64,000 nt of DNA, taken from a virus. The translations under genes were made by a program, and so were the position numbers. The notes beneath the pieces were generated by a model. The model had not been told where the DNA came from. It did no database searches and saw only the letters and a program-made list of their open reading frames with translations. Positions 1 to 58,783 of this stretch are shown piece by piece; the stretch's first letter is position 1; every line of letters begins with the position of its first letter. The DNA lies in the IMG/VR virus record IMGVR_UViG_3300027901_000002, positions 35,015 to 99,014 of that record. One strand, written 5' to 3'.

Positions 1-774
1 ATCCATTCCAAATGGATAACTTGAAGTATTTGCAGCAAGAAAATCAAATCTAATAACTATGTATTTAATGTCTGTATAATCAACAGTTGCAGTTTCGTCT
101 ACAATTCTCCAATATATAGCTGTTGCTCCAGTAAAATTTGCTCCACTACAAGTTACTTGTGTGTTAGAATCTACGCTAGTTATTGTGTAATGTCCTTCGT
201 CTACTGATGGTCTATCAAGAATTAATGTATCTCCAACAGAAACCGTTGTAAGAAAATTTTGTCCAGCTTCTGTAAAAATTCCACTTGACGCAGTTGTTAC
301 ACCAGCGATTCCAGCGTCAACAGTTTCTCCTTGCATAAAAACGTCATCTTCGTCACCTGAACACAAAAGAACTTCCCAATTACCCATTCTCTCTTGATCT
401 CCGCCAAAACTCCATTCCCCCCATCTACCGCTTGCGGATGTTGGTAAGGCAGTACTATCGTACAATCTAATTCTTGTAGCTTCTCCATTAGCAAGATATT
501 GATTTCCGCCTTTTCCTTTGACTATATAAATCCATATTAAAAAGTCGTTTTGCGTAATATCTATTGTTGAAGGTAAAGTAAAATACATTGAATTCCATAA
601 CGGTTGTCCGCTAGTAGCGTAGAAATTATAACAATCAGTCCCTTGTTTAGGTTCGTAAGAACCGTTTGTTGCCATAGCATAAGTATACGGATCGCCGTAG
701 CAAGGACTCAAAGTCCAGGGGTTTGGCGTCCCTTCACAATCGTCTATCATAGTGTAGTTGGCTGTAACAGTCAC
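1..774 (-). CDS. Beta-rich hypothetical protein, possibly virion or surface-associated; runs off the left edge
   Basis: Manual translation: GTG at 774 overlaps the TGA of the upstream ORF (GTGA) and the frame stays open to position 1 (VTVTANYTMIDDCEG...TTVSVGDTLILD...GHYTITSVDSNTQVT). Missing from the ORF track because it is truncated. Confidence 0.75.
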   Translation of the reverse strand, partial: MTVTANYTMIDDCEGTPNPWTLSPCYGDPYTYAMATNGSYEPKQGTDCYNFYATSGQPLWNSMYFTLPSTIDITQNDFLIWIYIVKGKGGNQYLANGEATRIRLYDSTALPTSASGRWGEWSFGGDQERMGNWEVLLCSGDEDDVFMQGETVDAGIAGVTTASSGIFTEAGQNFLTTVSVGDTLILDRPSVDEGHYTITSVDSNTQVTCSGANFTGATAIYWRIVDETATVDYTDIKYIVIRFDFLAANTSSYPFGMD

Positions 775-1631
775 GTTCCTAACATCATTTGTATTATTTC
801 AGCAATTGTTGGTCTTAATAAAGTTTTTTTACAATTTTCACATAATCTGTCTGGATCAATGGGTCTCATTTTTCCTTCTCCAAATAATGAAGGAGGAGGT
901 GCTAAACAAGAATATTTCTTTTCTAATTTAATAGCTTCTTCTCTCGTAACTCGTGGAATTTGTTCTCTAAATCTCTTTTTGTTTTCGTACAAAATTTCGT
1001 TGCTTCCCAAACAAGCTTTTGCCATATTTAATAAAGAACACGCAGAATCCATCCAACCCATTATATCGTTGCATAAATTTAAGAGACTTTCGTCTGTTTG
1101 ATTTTCAAATCTTAATCTTTGTATTTCTGTAATATAATACATTAATCTTCCGTTCCACAAACAAGTTTCTTCAACGAATAAACTTTGCGTCGGAAATATC
1201 ATATCTTTAATTTCTGACGTAACTTGAACTGCTTGTTCAGTAGAGGCTAATTCGTCTAGTTGTTCTTCTTGTCTACATTGAGCGCAAAATTTTTTCGTGT
1301 CGTAAATATACCATTCCCCGTATAAAGGCGGATGCTCTACAATATTAATAGTTAAACCTAAATCGTAGCGATCGTTTATTTCTTTCGCTTGTTTCGTAGA
1401 TTCTGTGCAAAAATTAGTCAATTGACCTAGAAAAGTTGCGTGTGGCCTTATTTCGTGAATTTTATCTCTTACTTGTGGAGTTTGCTTTCTAAAATTTTTT
1501 TCTGTATCTATAAAAGAAGGATAAATAGTCTCCCTCCACAAACTTTTTCTTCCCATAGAAACTTTTCCTATTAAAAATATGTTGTAAGCACATTTTCTAA
1601 ATATTTCTTTTATATCTTGAAGCGCTCCCAT
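771..1631 (-). CDS. Hypothetical protein with CxxC motifs
   Basis: 286-aa ORF in operon context; CAQC and CENC motifs. Confidence 0.7.
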   Translation of the reverse strand: MGALQDIKEIFRKCAYNIFLIGKVSMGRKSLWRETIYPSFIDTEKNFRKQTPQVRDKIHEIRPHATFLGQLTNFCTESTKQAKEINDRYDLGLTINIVEHPPLYGEWYIYDTKKFCAQCRQEEQLDELASTEQAVQVTSEIKDMIFPTQSLFVEETCLWNGRLMYYITEIQRLRFENQTDESLLNLCNDIMGWMDSACSLLNMAKACLGSNEILYENKKRFREQIPRVTREEAIKLEKKYSCLAPPPSLFGEGKMRPIDPDRLCENCKKTLLRPTIAEIIQMMLGT

Positions 1632-1633
1632 AA

Positions 1634-1831
1634 TTACACCTTTTCAAATAAATTTGCGTCTACCCAAGTTATTCTATTTGAACCTTTTCTCCTTACTAAT
1701 ATTTTATCAGTTGCGGTTGGTTTTGTATCTTGTTCGTCTCCTAAAACAATGTAAATTTTTCCCTTAAAATGAGAATAAACTTCTTCGTATTTTTGTTTTA
1801 ATTTTATTTCGTCGAATAAATTAAACTTCAT
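1634..1831 (-). CDS. Small hypothetical protein (SH3-like composition)
   Basis: 65-aa ORF ending 2 nt before the next gene. Confidence 0.6.
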   Translation of the reverse strand: MKFNLFDEIKLKQKYEEVYSHFKGKIYIVLGDEQDTKPTATDKILVRRKGSNRITWVDANLFEKV

Positions 1832-1921
1832 ATCTCAACATCTGGATTGTTTTTAATAAATTCTTTTAATGATACCCAATTTTTCCAAGTTCTATTATGA
1901 CCAATAACGGTCATTTGTACA

Positions 1922-2095
1922 TAAATTTTACCAGAATAATTAACTTTTTGTAGGTGTGTAACTTCCATTTCAATTCCAGAGGAATCTTTAATTTTTATGG
2001 TTTCAACCAGTTTTTAAAACCCCTTGTTTTCTACCCTGTTTTTATTAGGTACAAAAGTTACCTACACTACAAAAACATTTAACTGGGAAAATTTA
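1922..2095. repeat. Long imperfect inverted repeat in an intergenic gap
   Basis: TAAATTTTACCAG..TTTTTGTAG..TAACTT (1922-1964) versus the reverse complement of 2055-2095, TAAATTTTCCCAG..TTTTTGTAG..TAACTT. Confidence 0.6.
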
Positions 2096-2143
2096 CTTCC
2101 TTTGTTCCTTACTATTTTTATAAATTATTCTAATTTAAAGGTG

Positions 2144-3214
2144 TTATAAAACCATATCACCAGTAAATCTTAATAAGGTCGCTTGTTTTTTTTCTTTCTG
2201 TTTCTTTTGCTCTTTTGTTTCCTTTGGTTTTGTTTTCTTTTTCTTCCCATGTAACCAATCCTCTTTCTCCTCTTTTGGTTTAAACTTAATAGGAGGAAAA
2301 TTCATTTTCGCCCTCTTATCGTGTTTTCCAAAATTAAGAAGAATCCCGTTAAGATATTTTTGTTTGTAGTCGTATTTGTATGTGTCTACAAAAGACAAAT
2401 TTTCGCTTGGTGAGACACTTGAATAAAATTTATGAAGGTTGTTTCCCAACCAATTTAAAATAAAGATGAAAGGATGTTCGCAATTCTCGAAATCTTTTTT
2501 CTCACATTTTCCAGTCAATATTTTGTAAGCAACTTGCTGAGAACTAAGCTTTTCTTCTTCTATTGGTTTAAAGGATTTAATCCCACTCAATATGTTTCTC
2601 AAAGTCACTCGCATGTCGGAGTCGTAAATATCCTCAATGTCTCCCTGCCAATCTGGATATTTTTTCTTAACGAATTGCTCTACGTCCTTTCGAGTAGGAG
2701 CTTGAAGTTTTAGCGGAGTCATTTGTTTTGCGACTGTTGCGTGAACCGTATCTTTTTTATTGACAATTACAATAAAAGGATTTTTGGATTCTTTTACGTA
2801 AAAATTAATGAGAGCATAAGCTCTCCAGTAAAAGGAGTCTCCCTCTACTACGAAGATAGTGTTCCTCGTTTGTAGAGGGAGTTGTGCAAAATCCTTCAGT
2901 AAATCCTCGGTGTTTCTAGGATAAGAGTATTTTATCTGCCACCCAATTTCGCTGGCAATAAGTCTTGGGAGTGAGGATTTTCCAACGCCATGTTCGCCAA
3001 ACAAAAGGATTTTTTCGTTATTAAGGATAAGCTTTCGCAATTGATTTCTTTGTTTTTCGTTTCCCGCGATTAAAAAACTCGCCAAAATTTTTTTGCCTGT
3101 GTAATTTTCGTAAGCTGTTGTGCATTCTTCAACAGTTGAATTACACAGGCAAGCGATTTCAGGTAATGTAAACCTATTCTGATATACTAATTTTTTTACG
3201 CGTTTTCCTAACAT
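2144..3214 (-). CDS. rfcL: Replication factor C large-subunit-like AAA+ clamp loader with C-terminal PIP box
   Basis: Walker A GEHGVGKSS; SKNPFIVIVN and DMRVTLRNI RFC-like segments; lysine-rich tail ending KKQATLLRF (archaeal RFC-L PIP box). The start is more likely ATG 3214 than GTG 3244, which lies inside the upstream RNA structure. Confidence 0.75.
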   Translation of the reverse strand: MLGKRVKKLVYQNRFTLPEIACLCNSTVEECTTAYENYTGKKILASFLIAGNEKQRNQLRKLILNNEKILLFGEHGVGKSSLPRLIASEIGWQIKYSYPRNTEDLLKDFAQLPLQTRNTIFVVEGDSFYWRAYALINFYVKESKNPFIVIVNKKDTVHATVAKQMTPLKLQAPTRKDVEQFVKKKYPDWQGDIEDIYDSDMRVTLRNILSGIKSFKPIEEEKLSSQQVAYKILTGKCEKKDFENCEHPFIFILNWLGNNLHKFYSSVSPSENLSFVDTYKYDYKQKYLNGILLNFGKHDKRAKMNFPPIKFKPKEEKEDWLHGKKKKTKPKETKEQKKQKEKKQATLLRFTGDMVL

Positions 3215-3224
3215 AAATTTAAGT

Positions 3225-3352
3225 AAGGAAGGTCGGATTTGCACCGACGCTTTCTTAGGTGATGGTCTCAGTAAAGAAAGTCTAAAATAGATAAGCGGAC
3301 GTCCTTACCATCATTACCGTCAGTAGGCTTTACGCTATCTATTTTCTTCCTT
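3225..3352 (-). ncRNA. tRNA-like cloverleaf RNA (non-canonical)
   Basis: 7-bp closing stem AAGGAAG/CUUCCUU; T-arm GUCGG-UGCAAAU-CCGAC abutting it; long arm AAAAUAGAUAGCG/CGCUUAUCUAUUUU; arm CUUUCUU/AAGAAAG. Confidence 0.6.
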
Positions 3353-3441
3353 TATTTTATTTTATTTTTAAATTTTCTTAACATAAAAATATTTTAAACA
3401 TTTATAAATGTGTATTCCCAGACGAAGCATTTTTATTATTT

Positions 3442-3741
3442 TCAGATTTTTAAAAATAATAAAATAATCAAAATTGAAGTCGCTACGACGTTTCCAATCG
3501 AGGTATATAAAATAAACCTAAGAGTAGAGTTAATTTTTTGCGTTACGTTTAGTGTGTCTTGTAAAGTATCTAAAAGTTCGAGTATATCTTCTTCCATACT
3601 TAAGAAGAGTCCTAGCTCGTACAAATCTTTTTTCGTGTAAGACGAATTACATTCTTTACAATAAAATCTTTCGTAAACCCAATTCATTTCAATGTTTTTA
3701 TGTATCGGACAATTCATTAGTTGTTCGCCATTATTAAGCAA
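3442..3741 (-). CDS. Zn-ribbon protein with C-terminal membrane anchor
   Basis: CPIH...CKEC and a hydrophobic C-terminus. Confidence 0.55.
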   Translation of the reverse strand: MLNNGEQLMNCPIHKNIEMNWVYERFYCKECNSSYTKKDLYELGLFLSMEEDILELLDTLQDTLNVTQKINSTLRFILYTSIGNVVATSILIILLFLKI

Positions 3742-3970
3742 AGCGTTATAATTACGATAGATACGCCTAAAAACAAGGAAATAACAAAAAGGGCGTATTT
3801 TTTAAGTTGGTTCAATTTTTTCGACCTTAAAAGTAGTTTCGTTATCGATTCTTTCTGGATCTTGATTCCAAATCCTTTTAGTTGCTTTTCTAATCGCTTC
3901 GCACTCGTCTTCCGCTTCTACTTCTACTCTGTAAATATCTATCAAAAATTCTTTTACTTCTACTTTATAT

Positions 3971-4414
3971 TTAACCACTCATATCCACTCTTATTTCCAT
4001 TATTATACCATCTTCGATTTTTGCGTAAACTGGATACAATCCATCTCCAAATCCAGAATCAAAAGATACAGCTAAACCATCGTGTCCAAGGTGGAAAGGT
4101 ATTTGTTTGTAACTTTTTCCTTTTTTGTGAGAGACGTAATTGTAAGAAAATTCAAATTCTGGTTCGTAATGTATTCGAATCCATTGTTTAAGATCGTGTA
4201 TTAAGTTATTAGGTGTTAATCCTAGTTCTTTTATTTCTTGTTCGTAGCTATCAAAATCTTTACCATATTTGTATATTTTACCGCTTTCTTTGTCTCGATA
4301 TTCTCTTATATCTTCGTATTCGCCTTTTTTCCACCATTTAAGATAAGAAGGATCGCATATTATTAACTGTCCAGAATCTACTCCAACTACGCCAATTTTT
4401 TTCCATTCTGTCAT
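3971..4414 (-). CDS. DUF4241-like protein
   Basis: VGVDSGQLIICDP and SGFGDGLYPVYA motifs. Confidence 0.65.
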   Translation of the reverse strand: MTEWKKIGVVGVDSGQLIICDPSYLKWWKKGEYEDIREYRDKESGKIYKYGKDFDSYEQEIKELGLTPNNLIHDLKQWIRIHYEPEFEFSYNYVSHKKGKSYKQIPFHLGHDGLAVSFDSGFGDGLYPVYAKIEDGIIMEIRVDMSG

Positions 4415-4552
4415 TTCGAGTCGGTAGAGTTCGTCAACTCAGTGTTTCACATGCATGTTACGCACACCCCTGATAGCTCCTTGCTGTTGATTGAGGTAAG
4501 TGCAATGAGCACGTCTCTCGCTCCTTAGGAGTCCGTCTTAGGAGGCACCGAT
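4415..4552 (-). ncRNA. BHB-bounded intron/excised RNA element D (138 nt)
   Basis: 5' A-CGAG-AAA-UCGGUG (4559-4546) pairs with 3' UACCGA-CUCG-AAA-U (4426-4413); GC-rich with internal hairpins. Confidence 0.75.
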
Positions 4553-4965
4553 TTCTCGTCTAACTCTTTTAACCATCTATTTATAAAACCATTTATTTCG
4601 TGAGTTGGAACGTTATATCCGCTTGGACTACCTTCAGACCATTTGTTTAAAATTCTTTGCGTTTCTAACAAAACTAGTTCTGCCATAGTTTTTCTTTCTT
4701 TCAGAAGGTGTTGTTTTCTACTTAATTCCGCTTTTTCGTACATTCCATCTCTATAAAGCATTCTTGCAAACTTCATTTTTTGACGCAATTCAAAAATACC
4801 TAAATAATGACGATTAAACATTTCCACCAAAAACCTAGAATTTCGTCCTCTTTTTTCGAGCATTTTAATTGCTTTGTAAGTTCGCAAAAAATTACCAATA
4901 CTTAGTTTAATTGGATTAGTACTTATATTACTACAAATTGATTCTATTTTTTCTCTTTTTGACAT
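4525..4965 (-). CDS. Hypothetical protein; predicted to end ...ELDEK* after splicing
   Basis: 146-aa ORF whose last codons run into BHB element D. Confidence 0.65.
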   Translation of the reverse strand: MSKREKIESICSNISTNPIKLSIGNFLRTYKAIKMLEKRGRNSRFLVEMFNRHYLGIFELRQKMKFARMLYRDGMYEKAELSRKQHLLKERKTMAELVLLETQRILNKWSEGSPSGYNVPTHEINGFINRWLKELDEKSVPPKTDS

Positions 4966-5180
4966 TATTTTTCGTCTAATTTAGATATTGGACAATTTTC
5001 CCAATCTTGTGAATTGTAACAACCGCTAGTACATCCTCCTCCTTTGCCACATATTTCTCCACCACCTCTTAAATCTACAAGATATGGACATGTTGTTTTA
5101 CAAATCCACGTAACATGGTTCCAAGGGCAGTTGTTTATGTATTCACAACCTATACAATAATCTACGCTATAACTTGGCAT
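4965..5180 (-). CDS. Small Cys-rich protein
   Basis: Multiple Cys residues; ATG at 5180 directly follows the BHB 3' site; TAATG overlap with the next gene. Confidence 0.6.
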   Translation of the reverse strand: MPSYSVDYCIGCEYINNCPWNHVTWICKTTCPYLVDLRGGGEICGKGGGCTSGCYNSQDWENCPISKLDEK

Positions 5181-5182
5181 AT

Positions 5183-5327
5183 ATCGAGTCGGCCTCAATT
5201 GAGATTTTTGCTCTGGCTTGGGAAATTTGCATGCTTTCCAAAATAGTTAAAAGCTATAAAGTTTATAATCCAATGGGATCTCTAGTCCCTGTCTACCCCC
5301 CAAGAGGCCGTCGCAGAGCTTACCGAT
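5183..5327 (-). ncRNA. BHB-bounded intron/excised RNA element C (145 nt)
   Basis: 5' A-CGAG-AAA-UCGGU (5334-5322) pairs with 3' GCCGA-CUCG-AUA-U (5193-5181); internal GCUCUG/CAGAGC stem and hairpins. Confidence 0.7.
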
Positions 5328-5413
5328 TTCTCGTTCGGCGGGATGTAGTGACAATACGCACCGTCCCTATGTGACCTTCCTTATTACTCTTACGAGCTAT
5401 GCCCTATACCGAT
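5328..5413 (-). ncRNA. Structured middle segment B (86 nt) between two BHB elements, itself closable by a BHB-like motif
   Basis: CUCG-AAA-UCGGU (5419-5408) can pair with GCCGA-A-CGAG-AAA (5339-5327); hairpins CUC-GUAA-GAG and GGGA...UCCC. Confidence 0.5.
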
Positions 5414-5545
5414 TTCGAGTCAGCTGGAGCTCCCAAAGAACTTTCGGTTAGAGACGATATACGCTTCAACCTCCCCTGCATCCACTCGTGTAGAGTCTTT
5501 CTCTCTACTCAGGATCTACGGCTGTCCCGCTTCGTTCACGCTGAT
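5414..5545 (-). ncRNA. BHB-bounded intron/excised RNA element A (132 nt)
   Basis: 5' A-CGAG-AAA-UCAGC (5552-5540) pairs with 3' GCUGA-CUCG-AAA-U (5424-5412); inner helix shows compensatory changes relative to the other copies; hairpin GUAGAG/CUCUAC. Confidence 0.75.
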
Positions 5546-5863
5546 TTCTCGTATTCTTTCTTGTCTTCTTTTCTTAATTTCTTCTAACTCACTTTTCGGA
5601 ACTGGTTTTAACTTTACGCCTTCCGCAAAAACCAATTTTAATTCTTTTACCAATTCTTGCTTTACGCCGCTAATTTTAGGAGCAAATTTTGGAGGTTTCG
5701 GAGGAGGGTTCCAAGTAGGACGAGAAATAAATCTTTTCGTCCCAACGAACCTAAGAAAACTACTTCTATTTCTCCCTTCCAATTCTGCGTTTTCGTCTAT
5801 TTTCTTTAGCTCCTCTTCATTAACCCAAAAACTAATTTTTATTGCTCTTTTTCGATGCGACAT
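5516..5863 (-). CDS. Ribbon-helix-helix DNA-binding protein with a Pro-rich linker and C-terminal helix
   Basis: ISFWVNEEELKKIDENAELEGRNRSSFLR is a CopG/MobC-type RHH pattern. Confidence 0.7.
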   Translation of the reverse strand: MSHRKRAIKISFWVNEEELKKIDENAELEGRNRSSFLRFVGTKRFISRPTWNPPPKPPKFAPKISGVKQELVKELKLVFAEGVKLKPVPKSELEEIKKRRQERIREISVNEAGQP

Positions 5864-8309: not shown

Positions 8310-9380
8310 TTAGGTTTCATAAAATTCTGCCTTTAAGTTATTTTTTGTTTTTTTTAATTTCATTTCGTATTTTGGATTTATTAACCCTTTTAACAACAAG
8401 CCATCAATATCGTAAATTTTACACGCGTTTTCTATTATTGACGAATATTCGCATTCTTTTAAAGCTTCTTCGAAGATATTGTCTTTAAAACCAAAATAAG
8501 AAAAAATTGTTTTTAAAATTTCTTTTGTTTCGTATATCCTTTTTCTAAGAGTTCGAACGTCGCAACCAACAATTTCACATAAATCCTTTTGCGTTACGCC
8601 GAAATTTTCGCTAGTTAAAATATAAATACAAGCGGCGGCTTTAACAATTGGATTTCTAAATAAAGTAGAGGAACCTATTGCTTCCTCTATTTTTAAAATA
8701 TTTTTTATGAAATTTTTGCTTGCACAACAGACTAAAAACTCTTCTCTTGGAGATAAGCATATTCCGCTCACTATTTTAGTGACAAAAGTTTCTGGTTGTT
8801 GTTGTTCTACTTTTAAGTTTAAAATCGTAATTAATCTCGAATAAAATTGTTTTATTTTCTTTACATCGCATTCTATTTTCTCAAAATCGAATAAAGTGTA
8901 AGGAAGTTTTTGTTTTTTTATTTCTAAATACGCTATTCCTTGCGCTACAATTTCAAGTGAAACCTTACCTCCACCTCTAAAAATGTTGGTTGAGGAAATT
9001 TCATTTAATTTACATATTTTAATGAAGTTATAAAACGCCGAAGCGTAAAAATCTTTACTTAAACCAAGAAGTTCAATTATCCTCTTAAGTTCTTTTTTGA
9101 TTACAGATTCCCTTTTATCCTTCCAATCGTAATAGTATTTTTTTAAAGCTCTTTTTAAATTAGGATTTTTGCATTGTTTAATGTTTATTTTCGTTCTCTT
9201 GTTTATACCTTTTAAAAATGTAGACCTATTTCTTTCTTTTTCTATTGCCGAGTTGTCTTCTAATTGTTGAGGAGGAGTGTAATCAATCGGTTTATCTTCA
9301 AAAACCAAGCCACAGTTAGTACAAACATCTATTCTGTAAGATTTTTCTCCACATTCTGGACACCACGTCATAATCCACAC
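8310..9380 (-). CDS. tfb: Transcription initiation factor IIB (TFB) homologue
   Basis: N-terminal Zn ribbon CPECG...VCTNCGLV; two cyclin-like repeats; AAACIYI and GVTQKDLCEIVGCDVRTLRKR helix-turn-helix. Confidence 0.85.
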   Translation of the reverse strand: MWIMTWCPECGEKSYRIDVCTNCGLVFEDKPIDYTPPQQLEDNSAIEKERNRSTFLKGINKRTKINIKQCKNPNLKRALKKYYYDWKDKRESVIKKELKRIIELLGLSKDFYASAFYNFIKICKLNEISSTNIFRGGGKVSLEIVAQGIAYLEIKKQKLPYTLFDFEKIECDVKKIKQFYSRLITILNLKVEQQQPETFVTKIVSGICLSPREEFLVCCASKNFIKNILKIEEAIGSSTLFRNPIVKAAACIYILTSENFGVTQKDLCEIVGCDVRTLRKRIYETKEILKTIFSYFGFKDNIFEEALKECEYSSIIENACKIYDIDGLLLKGLINPKYEMKLKKTKNNLKAEFYET

Positions 9381-38405: not shown

Positions 38406-39001
38406 TCTCTGGAACATCATAAATAGGGAAAAAATTGAGAAAATAGATTTCCAACAAGGCGTAATGGAAGAACTATTAGATTGTAAAACTATAAATCTTG
38501 GGTTAGTAAATGGTTTAGCAAATTCATTGGAATACGAGTACGATTTCGTTCTTTCTTACTTTTACGACGAAATGGAGAAAAATTACAACGGCGATATTTT
38601 AATCGCAATAAAAAAAACCATAAGTTTATTGTGTAAAAGGATAAAATTAACTTTACAATTAATACAAAAAATAAAGGAAGAAAACAATGGCGGACGAACC
38701 TGAAGAGTATATGGATTTACCGTCAGCGATAAAAGACACTCAAAGAGCCGTTGATTTATTACAATTAAAATGCGATCCAGACGAAAATTGCGCAGAGTGC
38801 GATAAATTTTCTAAGTGCATACATGGAATACACATGGCGATAGGAGATGCCTTTTGGTACATAAACCAAATAGTGAGAATTTTAGAGGTTTTTTATCGAA
38901 ACGTTGGTGTCGTAACTGACGTGACTTCTGAGATACTTGATGGAATAAAAAAAAGCGAAATAAGAAAAAACGAACCTCCAAGTGAGAGGTATATAACATA
39001 A
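38338..39001 (+). other. Two hypothetical CDSs (38338-38703, 38687-39001)
   Basis: Operon-contiguous ORFs. Confidence 0.6.
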
Positions 39002-46757: not shown

Positions 46758-48616
46758 TGTCCCAACCAATAGATGAATTAATGATATCTGTTGCGATCCA
46801 AGAAGGATCGAACTTAGAAGAATTGTACGAAATGTTGAAAGAAATTCAACAAACTGGTAAAATTAAGATAGAAATGCCAGACGTACCTACTAAACAACAA
46901 ATTACGAGAATACAAGCGAGAATTACAGAAACAACTAATAACATAATTAAATTGTTAAAAACTTTTCCAAATTTATGGGAAAGTATAAAAGACATTCTCT
47001 TAAAAAACATAGAGTCTTTAACTAAACTAGTAGAAGTAATCGACATAACAACGGAAGACATTAAAGATAAGATTGTTGATATTAAATATTTATCAGAAAC
47101 GACACACGATAACGTTCTTAATTTAATTTCAGAAGTAGCAAAATTAGAACCTATACCAGACGACGTAAAACAAATTCTTATTAAGTTAAACGACACTTTG
47201 AAAATTTTAAGTACTCCAAGAGCCGATGTTGATTTATCTGACATTACAGAAAGATTAGATGATATAAAAGATCAGTGTGTGGTAGAACCAATCAATAAAA
47301 TAATTGATTTGATTAAAAATATAATAGAACGCAAGCTACCAGGAATTGCAAGAAGAATCACTAATCAGACTAAACAAATTGAAACTAAAATCGACGAAAT
47401 GATGGATCACGTCACAAAAATAAAAGACGATGCGTTCGAACAAGTCGATCTTTTACACCAAGCGCTTCAATCTGTAATAGTTGGTATTGTAGACAAAAAT
47501 CAATCTATGTTTGATGAATTAAAGGAAAACTTAGACGAATTAACTACGCAATTAAGAGGTACAGATAATTTAATTGTAAACGAATTCACTCTTCTTATCG
47601 ATAATTTACAAGATTTGTTAGATTCAGCGATAATGACTTACGCAGACGAGTTAGTGAGAATAGAAAACGAACTCCTTACTACCGTAGAGGAACAAATGCA
47701 AGAAATAGGAGGTTTATACAACCAAAATTTAAATCTTCAATTAGAAAATTTACACGAAACATTAAAATTACACGAAAAACTACAAGAAAAAATAATAAAA
47801 GAAGCGGACGAATTTGCTAGTGTAACGGAAGCTTTACTTGAAATTTCTAACGCAATTAATACTGATTTGTCGTTTGCTATTAACGAAGTTAAAAACACAA
47901 TAGAACAAATTTTAACAGACATGTGGCTTATTCAAACAACTGGTGGAGAAGCAAAGGAACGTATAATAACTAAATTAATAAATATAGAAAGAGAAGAACC
48001 TACTATTTTAACTAGACCGTTTGAAGCACCAGAAGAAGAAATACCTGATATTATGAGACCAACTACTGAAGTAGTAGAAAAAACTACAGTTTTAACTAAA
48101 CCAGTAGAAAGAGCAGAATTAGGGCCAATGTTTGACGTCGTGAGGTCTCTTATTAGAATTTTATCAACAACTGGTACAGCAGAAGAAGCCAAAGAAAAGT
48201 TTATACAAGACCCAAGAGTTGTTGCTGGAATAAGAGAAAGAGATATAACGCATACTCAAGAAATTATAAAATTATTAGAATTAACAGAAGTGAGCATAGC
48301 TTCTGATTCTCAAGATATTTTGAGAGCAATTATAGACGAAGTTATAGAGCCTTACTTCGAGAATCAAGATAATATTTCACAAAATGTTTCTGAAGGATTA
48401 GCAGAACAATTTAATAAAATTAGAGAAACTAAAGAAGAACTTTCTAGTGTAAGTGAAGATATAAGATATGTTGTTTCTAGGACGAAGGAAGTTCTTGAAA
48501 TTTTAAAGGAAGTTAAGGAAAAAACCGATACTATTAATAGGAAAACCGAAGACAAAACTTTAGAAGAAAAAAACATGGAAAAAGATAGTGGAAGAAAGAG
48601 AGTGTTGACTAAATAA
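46757..48616 (+). CDS. Tape-measure-like helical protein
   Basis: Position; long amphipathic acidic helices; IDELMISVAI N-terminus. Confidence 0.55.
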   Translation: MSQPIDELMISVAIQEGSNLEELYEMLKEIQQTGKIKIEMPDVPTKQQITRIQARITETTNNIIKLLKTFPNLWESIKDILLKNIESLTKLVEVIDITTEDIKDKIVDIKYLSETTHDNVLNLISEVAKLEPIPDDVKQILIKLNDTLKILSTPRADVDLSDITERLDDIKDQCVVEPINKIIDLIKNIIERKLPGIARRITNQTKQIETKIDEMMDHVTKIKDDAFEQVDLLHQALQSVIVGIVDKNQSMFDELKENLDELTTQLRGTDNLIVNEFTLLIDNLQDLLDSAIMTYADELVRIENELLTTVEEQMQEIGGLYNQNLNLQLENLHETLKLHEKLQEKIIKEADEFASVTEALLEISNAINTDLSFAINEVKNTIEQILTDMWLIQTTGGEAKERIITKLINIEREEPTILTRPFEAPEEEIPDIMRPTTEVVEKTTVLTKPVERAELGPMFDVVRSLIRILSTTGTAEEAKEKFIQDPRVVAGIRERDITHTQEIIKLLELTEVSIASDSQDILRAIIDEVIEPYFENQDNISQNVSEGLAEQFNKIRETKEELSSVSEDIRYVVSRTKEVLEILKEVKEKTDTINRKTEDKTLEEKNMEKDSGRKRVLTK

Positions 48617-55818: not shown

Positions 55819-57672
55819 ATGGATTTTAGAGACCAAATAAGATATTACTTAAACACTGCGTTTAAACAGACTATTGAAGATAGTCCTTACAGTGGTCATA
55901 GTTTAGTAAAATTTGGAGAATGGAGTAGAGAAGAAGGATTTGTAAAAGACGATTCTGCTTCTTACAACGATGTTGCTGTTCCTTGTCCAGTTATTGCAAT
56001 TGTTGACGAAAAAATAAGAGAAAATCATTTAATACTAACTATAACTGGAACTGAGGCAGTATACGACCAAGATGAATCATTTCAACAAATAGGCGTTACA
56101 ATAACGAAAAAAACATATAAAAAAGGAACAAATACAGTTCAAACAACTCTTGAAATTCCTAGATTTACTAGAGAACTAGCAACCTTCTTAATTTCTGGTT
56201 TAGGAAACAAAATATTTGAAATAACTAGCGTAACTTCAAACATTCCAATTGCAGAACAAGTAGGTGGTGGTAAAGTAAGTTTTTACGGTTTAGCAAGCGA
56301 AGGGAGCAAAGTTCTTTATTATTTAGGAATGTTTAAGATACATAACATGATTAAAGAAATTATAAATTCAATTTGGATAGCTCCAGAAAAGTGTCCTCTT
56401 TGCGATGGAACTGGAACTTACGGAACTGGTGGTGGTACTTGTCCTCAATGTAATGGTTATGGATATAGTGGACAAAACGCGGCAAAAGGAATAGCTCTCG
56501 CAAAAGGGTACGACGTAAAATTAACAAGAGAAAAGTTTGCTGAATATCCTCTTACTGACGCTCAATTTGAAAAAGTATGGAAATTTATAAACCAAGCATG
56601 GACTCAAAAATGGTGGGTGACACCAACTGTTTCAGAAATAAAAAGATTGTTTGCTCATTTTTACAACGTTTCACAAGACGATATAATAATTACAGAAAGA
56701 TATCACTTTTCAATGCCGCATTGGGATATTTCTCTTCCTTTAGAAGCGCAAACAGGAAGCCCTTTTGACGTAGGAGATACAGATTTAATGAAGTATATAG
56801 CAAGATCTGTAACTCCAGCAGGGGTGAATGTTTTTGTTGGGTTTTATAGATATATTAATATAGGAGATTTAGACGATTTACAGTGTATAAAAGCAGAATT
56901 ACAAGTTGGAAATTCTCTTATAACAAGAGCGATAATGATAAGCTCAATAGAAGCGGCTTACGATCATTGGTTTAGTAGATATAGATGTTGGAACGGATGG
57001 AATAGATGTGTAGACAATTTTGAAGGAGGATTTGGATTAAATTGGAACACGAGCGGAAACGTTGATATATTCAACGCAAACGATATAGGTAGAAATTGGT
57101 GTAGGTTAAAAGGAAATTCTTACGCTCAAACTCCTACTGGATACGCTATTACTAACGCGACTGGTGTTGTTGAAGCATGGGTTCATCCAAGAGACAACGA
57201 ATTAAGGGTAGGTGCTTTTCTTACTGGTGTTGAAGATTGGGCTTTTTACTTAGATTTTAAAAGTAGTGGTTTTTACGATCATAATAATAATTTAATAAGA
57301 GCAGCAAAACCAGATTGTGATTATCATATTAGAATGGATTTTATAAGCGATAAATATTTATCTGGTGTTCTTGGTTATGTAGATAAAGTGTATATAAATA
57401 GAGAACAAGTAGCAACTGGAATATGTTTTAAAAATGGTTTGCTCCCTAATAGACCTATAAGAATAAGTAGTAATGGAGTTGGAACTGGATTTTTTGATAA
57501 CTTTGGTGCTAATTGGGTTAGTGGATATACTGAAAACGATAATTGGCAAAGACTATATCAATGGGGTTGGGGTGAAAATCATCTAAACTGTTTGAGTGGC
57601 GTTACTAATTTGTTCGAAAAATACTTTCACAAAGATAAGTTTTTTAACATAAACGTATCTGGTGTGTGTTAA
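55819..57672 (+). CDS. Baseplate wedge (gpI-like) protein with CxxCxGxG finger and C-terminal beta-sandwich
   Basis: Follows baseplate J; PTVSEIKRL, SVTPAGV; VEAWV LamG-like motif. Confidence 0.6.
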   Translation: MDFRDQIRYYLNTAFKQTIEDSPYSGHSLVKFGEWSREEGFVKDDSASYNDVAVPCPVIAIVDEKIRENHLILTITGTEAVYDQDESFQQIGVTITKKTYKKGTNTVQTTLEIPRFTRELATFLISGLGNKIFEITSVTSNIPIAEQVGGGKVSFYGLASEGSKVLYYLGMFKIHNMIKEIINSIWIAPEKCPLCDGTGTYGTGGGTCPQCNGYGYSGQNAAKGIALAKGYDVKLTREKFAEYPLTDAQFEKVWKFINQAWTQKWWVTPTVSEIKRLFAHFYNVSQDDIIITERYHFSMPHWDISLPLEAQTGSPFDVGDTDLMKYIARSVTPAGVNVFVGFYRYINIGDLDDLQCIKAELQVGNSLITRAIMISSIEAAYDHWFSRYRCWNGWNRCVDNFEGGFGLNWNTSGNVDIFNANDIGRNWCRLKGNSYAQTPTGYAITNATGVVEAWVHPRDNELRVGAFLTGVEDWAFYLDFKSSGFYDHNNNLIRAAKPDCDYHIRMDFISDKYLSGVLGYVDKVYINREQVATGICFKNGLLPNRPIRISSNGVGTGFFDNFGANWVSGYTENDNWQRLYQWGWGENHLNCLSGVTNLFEKYFHKDKFFNINVSGVC

Positions 57673-58720: not shown

Positions 58721-58783
58721 AGGAACAAATCGTAAAGGATTACGAAGAATTAATAAAAGAAAAAATAAAAAGGAAGAAAGAAA

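Follow-up and report, generated by a model that had tools for sequence, protein, structure and literature searches.

A tRNA-like four-way junction in the predicted leader of a viral clamp-loader-like gene, a candidate signal for RNase P and tRNase Z

Introduction

The enzymes that process the ends of transfer RNA (tRNA), RNase P and tRNase Z, recognise chiefly its acceptor/T-arm half. In the mascRNA/MALAT1 modules a tRNA-like fold lies within a longer transcript, and a small RNA is separated from it by RNase P and RNase Z. Here we describe a 128-nucleotide (nt) element at positions 3225–3352 (minus strand) of a 64,000-nt stretch of viral DNA, referred to below as the window, which corresponds to bases 35015–99014 of the 99,014-bp IMG/VR virus record IMGVR_UViG_3300027901_000002, a genome with direct terminal repeats. 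The element keeps an acceptor-like stem and a mimic of the T-arm in the predicted 5′ leader of an ATPase gene, and it may be a processing signal of the kind known as t-elements.

In Haloferax, a t-element is cut by RNase P and tRNase Z and defines the 5′ end of 5S rRNA, and engineered RNAs have been released by flanking t-elements (PMC4326828); in plant mitochondria, mRNA ends are shaped by t-elements (PMC1920247). The element of the window resembles these t-elements in being a non-decoding fold in a longer predicted transcript, in keeping the acceptor stem and the T-arm and in adjoining the RNA whose end it would define, whereas it differs in its length of 128 nt, its two oversized arms, its K-loop motif, a possible loop-loop contact, its viral source and its restriction to a single lineage, and its cleavage is predicted. 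The mascRNA/MALAT1 modules are eukaryotic and lie at 3′ ends, whereas for the element an archaeal context and a place at the 5′ end of a viral mRNA are predicted. A further comparison is offered by the archaeal K-loop of box C′/D′ RNAs, the D′/C′ arrangement of which is recognised by L7Ae (PMC6009581), and by the k-turns of archaeal mRNA 5′ leaders, through which L7Ae is reported to regulate translation (PMC5539422, PMC6298567). With these the element shares a CUGA-5 nt-AUGAUGG motif at a hairpin tip in a 5′ leader; unlike the archaeal box C′/D′ RNAs, it has neither terminal C/D boxes nor guide spacing, and its putative L7Ae site is a pattern that occurs at chance rate.

Results and Discussion

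In its first 27 kb the window has its genes on the minus strand, and the finding therefore concerns that strand, on which the element was resolved into the following parts, from 5′ to 3′:

3225–3352, minus strand: the whole four-way-junction element, 128 nt (fold and sequence)
3346–3352, minus strand: acceptor-like closing stem, 5′ strand AAGGAAG, with 7 perfect bp to 3225–3231
3284–3345, minus strand: arm 1, 62 nt, with a 13-bp lower stem and one bulge, a 5x5 internal loop, an upper stem of about 6 bp and an apical K-loop (fold)
3308–3323, minus strand: K-loop-like motif CUGA-CGGUA-AUGAUGG (D′-box, 5-nt spacer, C′-box), a pattern match at the tip of arm 1
3307–3313, minus strand: kissing candidate UGAUGGU in arm 1, overlapping the C′-box of the K-loop (complementarity)
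3281–3283, minus strand: AGA linker from arm 1 to arm 2 (fold and sequence)
3250–3280, minus strand: arm 2, with a 7-bp stem CUUUCUU/AAGAAAG and a 17-nt loop (fold and sequence)
3260–3266, minus strand: kissing candidate ACCAUCA in the loop of arm 2 (complementarity)
3232–3248, minus strand: T-arm mimic GUCGG-UGCAAAU-CCGAC, 5 bp and a 7-nt loop
3225–3231, minus strand: acceptor-like closing stem, 3′ strand CUUCCUU, directly abutting the T-arm with a linker of 0 nt
3224, minus strand: A at the discriminator position (sequence), just 3′ of which a tRNase Z cut would be expected

The original prediction, made from the letters of the window, had placed here a four-way junction with a 7-bp acceptor-like stem, a 5-bp T-arm with a UGCAAAU loop, a stem of about 13 bp with a large insert at the position of the D-arm (arm 1), a 7-bp stem with a 17-nt loop at that of the anticodon arm (arm 2) and an end about 10 nt ahead of an ATG. 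All of these were found at the positions it gave, with the ATG at 3214, and a single C separates arm 2 from the T-arm-like hairpin. The minimum free energy of the element was −38.5 kcal/mol as against −24.65 ± 3.29 kcal/mol for 200 dinucleotide shuffles (z −4.21), none of which folded as well, and the four-way junction was unchanged when it was folded in a context of 211 nt. The GC content of the element was found to be 42%, whereas that of the adjoining spacer was 15%, and the remaining intergenic region and the leaders of two relatives were unstructured (z +0.35 to +0.71). The element is a modular folded domain. It has in common with tRNA (RF00005) the four-way junction, a 7-bp acceptor stem continuous with a 5-bp T-stem, a 7-nt T-loop and the discriminator A, and it differs from tRNA in having no D-arm and no 7-nt anticodon loop and in its junction linkers of 0/3/1/0 nt.

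The likeness to the tRNA half was measured against the sequence of the window. The T-loop fits the consensus at its G53-C61 closing pair and at U54, C56, A57, A58 and U60. When hairpins with five Watson-Crick pairs closed by G-C and a loop of the form U-N-C-R-A-N-Y were counted in the window, the one of the element was the only one, against 0.13 expected, and such a hairpin abutting a 7-bp acceptor partner occurred once in the window and in 0 of 100 shuffles. The 17-mer of the T-arm, GTCGGTGCAAATCCGAC, was found in 32 IMG/VR stretches; it was the T-arm of phage tRNAs called by ARAGORN in 14 of the 16 loci tested, mostly tRNA-Met(CAU), and one further occurrence was an identical T-loop hairpin in a cobalamin riboswitch (locus L017). 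A covariance model of the element aligned arm for arm, weakly (expectation value (E) 0.26), with the real tRNA-Ala of a related virus, G001. Both the T-loop and the K-loop motifs can be read correctly on the minus strand only, that is, on the sense strand of the genes. The mimicry of the tRNA half is genuine and is statistically unusual for this genome.

The same T-arm was also noticed outside tRNAs in bacteriophage genomes. An unannotated element of about 125 nt at 4986–5110 (minus strand) of locus L029 (IMGVR_UViG_3300028832_000467) lies in a bacteriophage tRNA array beside a ROOL RNA, and its T-arm is identical, while its closing stem, AAGGGAAG/CUUUCCUU, is much like that of the window element; no Rfam family was matched, the covariance model gave an E of 0.2, and it could be an analogous expanded tRNA-like RNA. 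More non-tRNA copies of the T-arm were seen inside phage tRNA arrays at L025 2260–2400, a locus that also has a GOLLD RNA, and at L010 10176–10247, where the copy lies directly upstream of a tRNA and has the closing stem GUUCCCU/AGGGAAC.

The surroundings of the element were compared with four related loci (L002–L005) and with G001, the related virus of 99.5 kb, and the features concerned are these:

3388–3412, minus strand: promoter-like block CACATTTATAAATGTTTAAAATATT, aligned with L003, L005 and L002 and repeated in the genome
3369–3375, minus strand: direct repeat AAATTTA, 5′ copy (sequence)
3353–3371, minus strand: predicted A/U-rich 5′ leader of about 18 nt ahead of the element, from the promoter-to-ATG spacing in L003
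3215–3223, minus strand: 9-nt spacer CUUAAAUUU from the element to the ATG (sequence)
3214–3220, minus strand: direct repeat AAATTTA, 3′ copy, overlapping the A of the ATG (sequence)
2144–3214, minus strand: clamp-loader-like AAA+ ATPase, 356 amino acids (PHROGs and fold matches)

In the closest locus, L003 (66% identity), a common block CA-ATTTA-AA-TGTTTAAAATATT is followed by the ATG 16 nt beyond it, a spacing such as a leaderless mRNA would be expected to have. In the window, where 3388 is the last base of the promoter block and the ATG stands at 3214, the intergenic region is 137 nt longer than that of L003. Because the promoter block shared with the closest relative sits there 16 nt before the ATG, the alignment indicates that the element is a lineage-specific insert of about 140–150 nt in the leader. 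By homology with the promoter of the relative, transcription would start near 3370, the element is predicted to lie in the 5′ leader of the ATPase gene, and the RNA would run from an A/U leader of 18 nt through the element and an A to CUUAAAUUU and the AUG. No Shine-Dalgarno motif was found before the ATG at 3214, and a clear one was present in 14 of the 47 larger open reading frames (ORFs) of the window. The start codon and the 9 bases upstream of it were left free in the fold of the 211-nt context.

Since the element keeps only that part of tRNA which the end-processing enzymes read, we tentatively suggest, at less than even confidence, that it is a t-element-like signal for cutting by RNase P and tRNase Z, carried in a lineage-specific leader insert. 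Its place between a conserved promoter block and the ATG fits a t-element, with the transcription start as predicted from the spacing in L003. Transcription would begin about 18 nt upstream of the element, the host RNase P would cut between 3353 and 3352, where the closing stem begins, and tRNase Z would cut after A3224. A stable RNA of about 129 nt would thereby be released, to which L7Ae may bind through the apical K-loop of arm 1, and the mRNA would keep a leader of 9 nt, which is near the leaderless form of the relatives. Such cleavage would free a gene which is leaderless in relatives from a structured leader that has no Shine-Dalgarno motif. A tRNA-shaped unit ahead of an ORF was also seen in G001, where 56551–56700 (equal to L061 16551–16700), plus strand, carries a tRNA-Ala(UGC) followed at a distance of 7 nt by a tRNA look-alike (called “tRNA-?(ga)” by ARAGORN), which has an anticodon loop of 6 nt and ends 16 nt before an ORF with a GGTGA ribosome-binding site. 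The G001 unit is not homologous to the element, and it indicates that tRNA-shaped units ahead of coding sequence occur in this virus group.

Several observations weigh against cleavage as the role of the element. The element was absent from the leader of the same gene in 4 of 4 related loci and from the complete G001, and as no other copy was found either, there is no covariation and no sign of selection; the structural conservation in related viruses on which the original prediction was made to depend was not found. The plus strand is equally foldable (−38.6 kcal/mol, z −3.4), and the four main stems are purely Watson-Crick, with 2 G·U among 43 pairs, both in the weak apical part. The fold by itself is therefore silent on the strand and on whether RNA or DNA is concerned, and these features are compatible with a young DNA palindrome as well as with a selected RNA. 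Position 55 of the T-loop is G instead of U, and the junction linkers, which are 2/1/4-5/0 nt in tRNA, are so unlike those of tRNA that the acceptor stem could stack on arm 1 instead of the T-arm. A few such arrangements are expected by chance over some 250,000 scanned windows. Finally, a leader of 9 nt is still not leaderless. A tRNA-like noncoding RNA or processing signal, as the original prediction had proposed, nevertheless is a reasonable reading on account of the position in the predicted leader, and the mimicry of acceptor stem and T-arm speaks for it, whereas the want of conservation in the four loci and G001 speaks against it.

The element may alternatively be a neutral or nearly neutral insert, that is, a young palindromic DNA such as a mobile or recombination relic or a DNA hairpin at the start of a leaderless gene, the tRNA look of which comes from nested inverted repeats; we regard this as doubtful and yet as a serious possibility. 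It would agree with the presence of the element in this lineage only, with the perfect Watson-Crick stems and the equal stability of both strands, and with the other GC-richer inserts in the same gene block (4415–5551). The identical sequence was present in marine-sediment and seawater DNA runs, and the contigs of four DNA runs over 2144–5600 agreed fully with the window and showed neither variants nor joints (3340–3376 was skipped as a repeat), so that no record of purifying selection is available. The flanking AAATTTA repeat also accords with such an insert, as dropping the 148 nt between its copies together with one copy would bring the ATG to 18 nt after the promoter block and so restore the spacing of the relative; however, the repeat is real and yet not significant in sequence of 15% GC, and its interpretation as a target-site duplication was set aside. 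That a consensus T-loop hairpin should adjoin a 7-bp stem by chance is very improbable in this genome, and two strand-specific RNA motifs, the T-loop and the K-loop, lie on the sense strand, both of which argue against a neutral insert. The element was moreover single-copy everywhere searched, which is unusual for a mobile element. BLAST showed no second copy in the genome and the covariance model found only the element itself there, while in G001 and the other loci the model gave only weak matches at the level of architecture. A short-word BLAST in the own genome and in G001 returned A-rich low-complexity matches only, and blastn against GenBank phages returned nothing. In IMG/VR, a 19-mer of arm 1 had 0 matches, and a combined K-loop and T-loop pattern had 17, all of them chance matches in coding DNA. 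A 19-mer spanning the T-loop and the acceptor stem had one chance match, in a bacterial coding sequence, and no match to a tRNA in 185,579 GTDB species genomes.

The tip of arm 1 was examined as a binding site for L7Ae. The motif there allows possible K-loop pairs, namely sheared G32·A42 and A33·G41 followed by U31·U43 and C30-G44. Two copies of the pattern as such were counted in the window, where 0.91 would be expected, and the second of them lies in coding sequence, so that for the copy in arm 1 only the position at a hairpin tip is noteworthy, and it is a possible L7Ae site as judged from the sequence. The kissing loop of the original prediction was borne out in so far as the 7-nt complementarity of UGAUGGU and ACCAUCA is present. 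It is weakly above chance (the probability of a run of at least 7 complementary bases between the loops is 0.021) and it overlaps the K-loop, so that the two interactions would compete.

A K-loop at this place would also suit an uncut cis-regulatory leader, in which the fold is retained as part of the mRNA and the stability or translation of the latter is governed, for example, by L7Ae binding or a pairing switch. In the latter variant, the near-repeats AAGGAAG/AAGAAAG and CUUUCUU/CUUCCUU could swap partners. We consider such a leader unlikely, if worth keeping in view. It draws on the L7Ae-regulated k-turns of archaeal mRNA leaders described above, on the closeness, at 10 nt, of an ATG without a Shine-Dalgarno motif, and on an in-frame GTG at 3244 within the T-arm, 5 nt upstream of which a purine-rich AAGAAAG is sequestered in arm 2. 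On the other side, neither the ATG at 3214 nor the stretch of 9 bases ahead of it is sequestered, the K-loop pattern is at chance rate, the gene of the relatives has no such leader, and no ligand-binding or regulatory Rfam family was matched.

Known RNA families were searched for in the same sequence. As the original prediction had expected, ARAGORN called nothing for the element at its default threshold, with or without intron options, in the window or the genome; at a relaxed threshold it gave one weak call, the ends of which differ from those of the fold described here. Rfam likewise gave no match at the gathering score and none as a family match at E up to 10, and known ribozymes and riboswitches were rejected accordingly. 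A cobalamin riboswitch (RF00174 and variants, B12 box) was among these, and since locus L017 scores 66.5 bits, the search does detect true cobalamin members.

A guide-type small RNA, with arm 1 as an H/ACA-like hairpin in which AGA is the ANA box, or with a C/D-like RNA in a tRNA-like scaffold, is very improbable. Arm 1 does have the order of stem, internal loop, stem of about 6 bp and K-loop followed by a single-stranded AGA, which fits an H/ACA hairpin; however, the ANA box of H/ACA guides is typically 14–16 nt from the top of the pocket, whereas AGA is about 19–20 nt from it, and no Rfam H/ACA family was matched. A box C/D small RNA, which has terminal C (RUGAUGA) and D (CUGA) boxes, internal D′/C′ boxes and guides of about 12 nt, was rejected because only a D′/C′-like K-loop is present, with no terminal C box and a C′-to-D spacing of 36 nt as against the 10–12 nt expected; there was no Rfam C/D family match, and a weak C/D snoRNA alignment by cmscan, which falls on the AUGAUGG box, had an E of 0.91, at the level of chance.

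Equally improbable is a real tRNA gene, either disguised or decayed, that holds non-canonical introns or has been expanded, and so is a tRNA 3′ half kept as a phage attachment site (attP), even though acceptor stem, T-arm and discriminator are all there and the relative G001 has tRNA genes. A canonical tRNA is excluded by the 7 bp and 17-nt loop of arm 2, by the 62 nt of arm 1, where a tRNA has an anticodon arm of 5 bp with a 7-nt loop and a D-arm of 3–4 bp, and by the negative tRNA finders. None of 7,315 variants with a single segment deleted was called a tRNA; of 332,921 variants with two segments deleted 572 were, as compared with 2–3242 in twelve controls with shuffled interiors, which shows that such calls are due to the acceptor stem and the T-arm alone. 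The deletions being no better than the controls, and no bulge-helix-bulge (BHB) motif being found by inspection at any candidate junction, an intron-containing archaeal tRNA was rejected. A BHB intron was rejected as well, as the flanks AAAAUAAA and ACUUAAAU cannot form a 4-bp helix with two 3-nt bulges. The missing tRNA match of the 19-mer in the GTDB species genomes speaks against a tRNA fragment from a known host. With regard to attP, direct terminal repeats are present in the genome, and a scan of about 25 larger window ORFs showed no integrase.

If the element is a t-element-like signal, a double role may be imagined, in which excision by RNase P and tRNase Z would restore a near-leaderless mRNA after an insertion at its start, and the released RNA, CCA-tailed and bound by L7Ae, would act in trans, for example by decoying host factors directed at tRNA or in a guide-like ribonucleoprotein. 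We think this improbable; were it true, the RNA would stand for a class of viral small RNAs that has yet to be described in archaea. Should the cuts by themselves occur, an archaeal virus would here be found in nature to shape an mRNA 5′ end with the tRNA end-processing enzymes of its host, a principle so far documented in the cellular rRNA leader of Haloferax and in plant mitochondrial mRNAs, and used as a laboratory tool, and it would show how a leaderless gene tolerates an insertion at its start. The K-loop adds a predicted link to L7Ae. At present the element is a single-genome orphan, and its value is that of a precisely defined candidate and not that of a finding.

Some other features of the leader were noticed. 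AT-rich promoter-like blocks, TTTTTAAAAATCTGAAAAT and ATTTATAAATGTTTAAAATATT, are repeated in the window at 3388–3456 and in the genome at 2025, 47262–47284 and 69700, where blocks of this type stand ahead of other genes too, and they are common to related viruses even with a different upstream gene. Between the promoter block and the element lies a mini-ORF (minus strand; ATG 3384, MLRKFKNKIK, stop TAA 3354–3352), the stop of which overlaps the first bases of the element and the frame of which corresponds to the N-terminus in L003 (MKNDTE...). A translational bypass like that of gene 60, from AAA at 3357–3355 to the in-frame AAA at 3220–3218 over 134 nt, was set aside, since AAA is a codon found throughout this sequence and the consensus N-terminus is already obtained from the ATG at 3214. 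The sequence AAAGGAAGAAAA at the 5′ end of the element recurs in the window at 38668–38684 and about 58765–58780, 2–4 nt before the ATGs at 38687 and 58784, and may be a local form of ribosome-binding site. Sequestration of a Shine-Dalgarno/anti-Shine-Dalgarno pair by the closing stem was rejected, as no start codon follows AAAGGAAGAAAA in the element.

The gene downstream of the element was called rfcL, a clamp loader, in the original prediction, and the label holds in part. Its product matched phrog_168 (clamp loader) at E 6e-4, while Pfam gave it no name and a profile search of PDB sequences returned a generic AAA match only. The AlphaFold model (predicted local distance difference test 68.6) had RFC1 chains as its best matches, then the T4 clamp loader, RuvB and Cdc6/Orc1, at template-modelling scores of about 0.36–0.39. 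These soft scores make “clamp-loader-like” a fair name on the strength of the model, with “rfcL” not proven. The protein has eleven homologues at 48–66% identity, and an identical protein is found on three other contigs.

The virus is an uncultured tailed virus of marine sediment, the host of which probably belongs to the domain Archaea. The window codes for a large terminase, a portal protein and tail proteins, and the main hint at the host is a TFIIB-like protein at 8310–9380 (minus strand) of the window, with a zinc ribbon and a cyclin repeat that are both just below the Pfam thresholds; the two together suggest a tailed virus of archaea. The GC content of the window was found to be 33.5%, and ARAGORN called no tRNA genes in it.

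At 1.1–2.3 kb from the element, on the same strand and in the same early-gene block, the window carries a cluster of inserts (4415–5551) which, like the element, are GC-richer (47–58% GC against 33%). Kinship between them was rejected, as the terminal motifs of the inserts occur only at 4415–5551, where the element has no such termini, and the covariance model gave no match. Folding of the inserts was no better than that of shuffles (z −0.85 to +0.5). Their ends, CGAG-AAA-UC(G/A)G ... C(C/U)GA-CUCG-A(A/U)A (CGAG-AAA-UCGG...CCGA-CUCG-AAA in the form lacking in the element), have the arrangement of a BHB splice motif, and the three 5′ and three 3′ motifs were found nowhere else in the 99-kb genome or in G001, so far as these two were searched, all six lying within the cluster.

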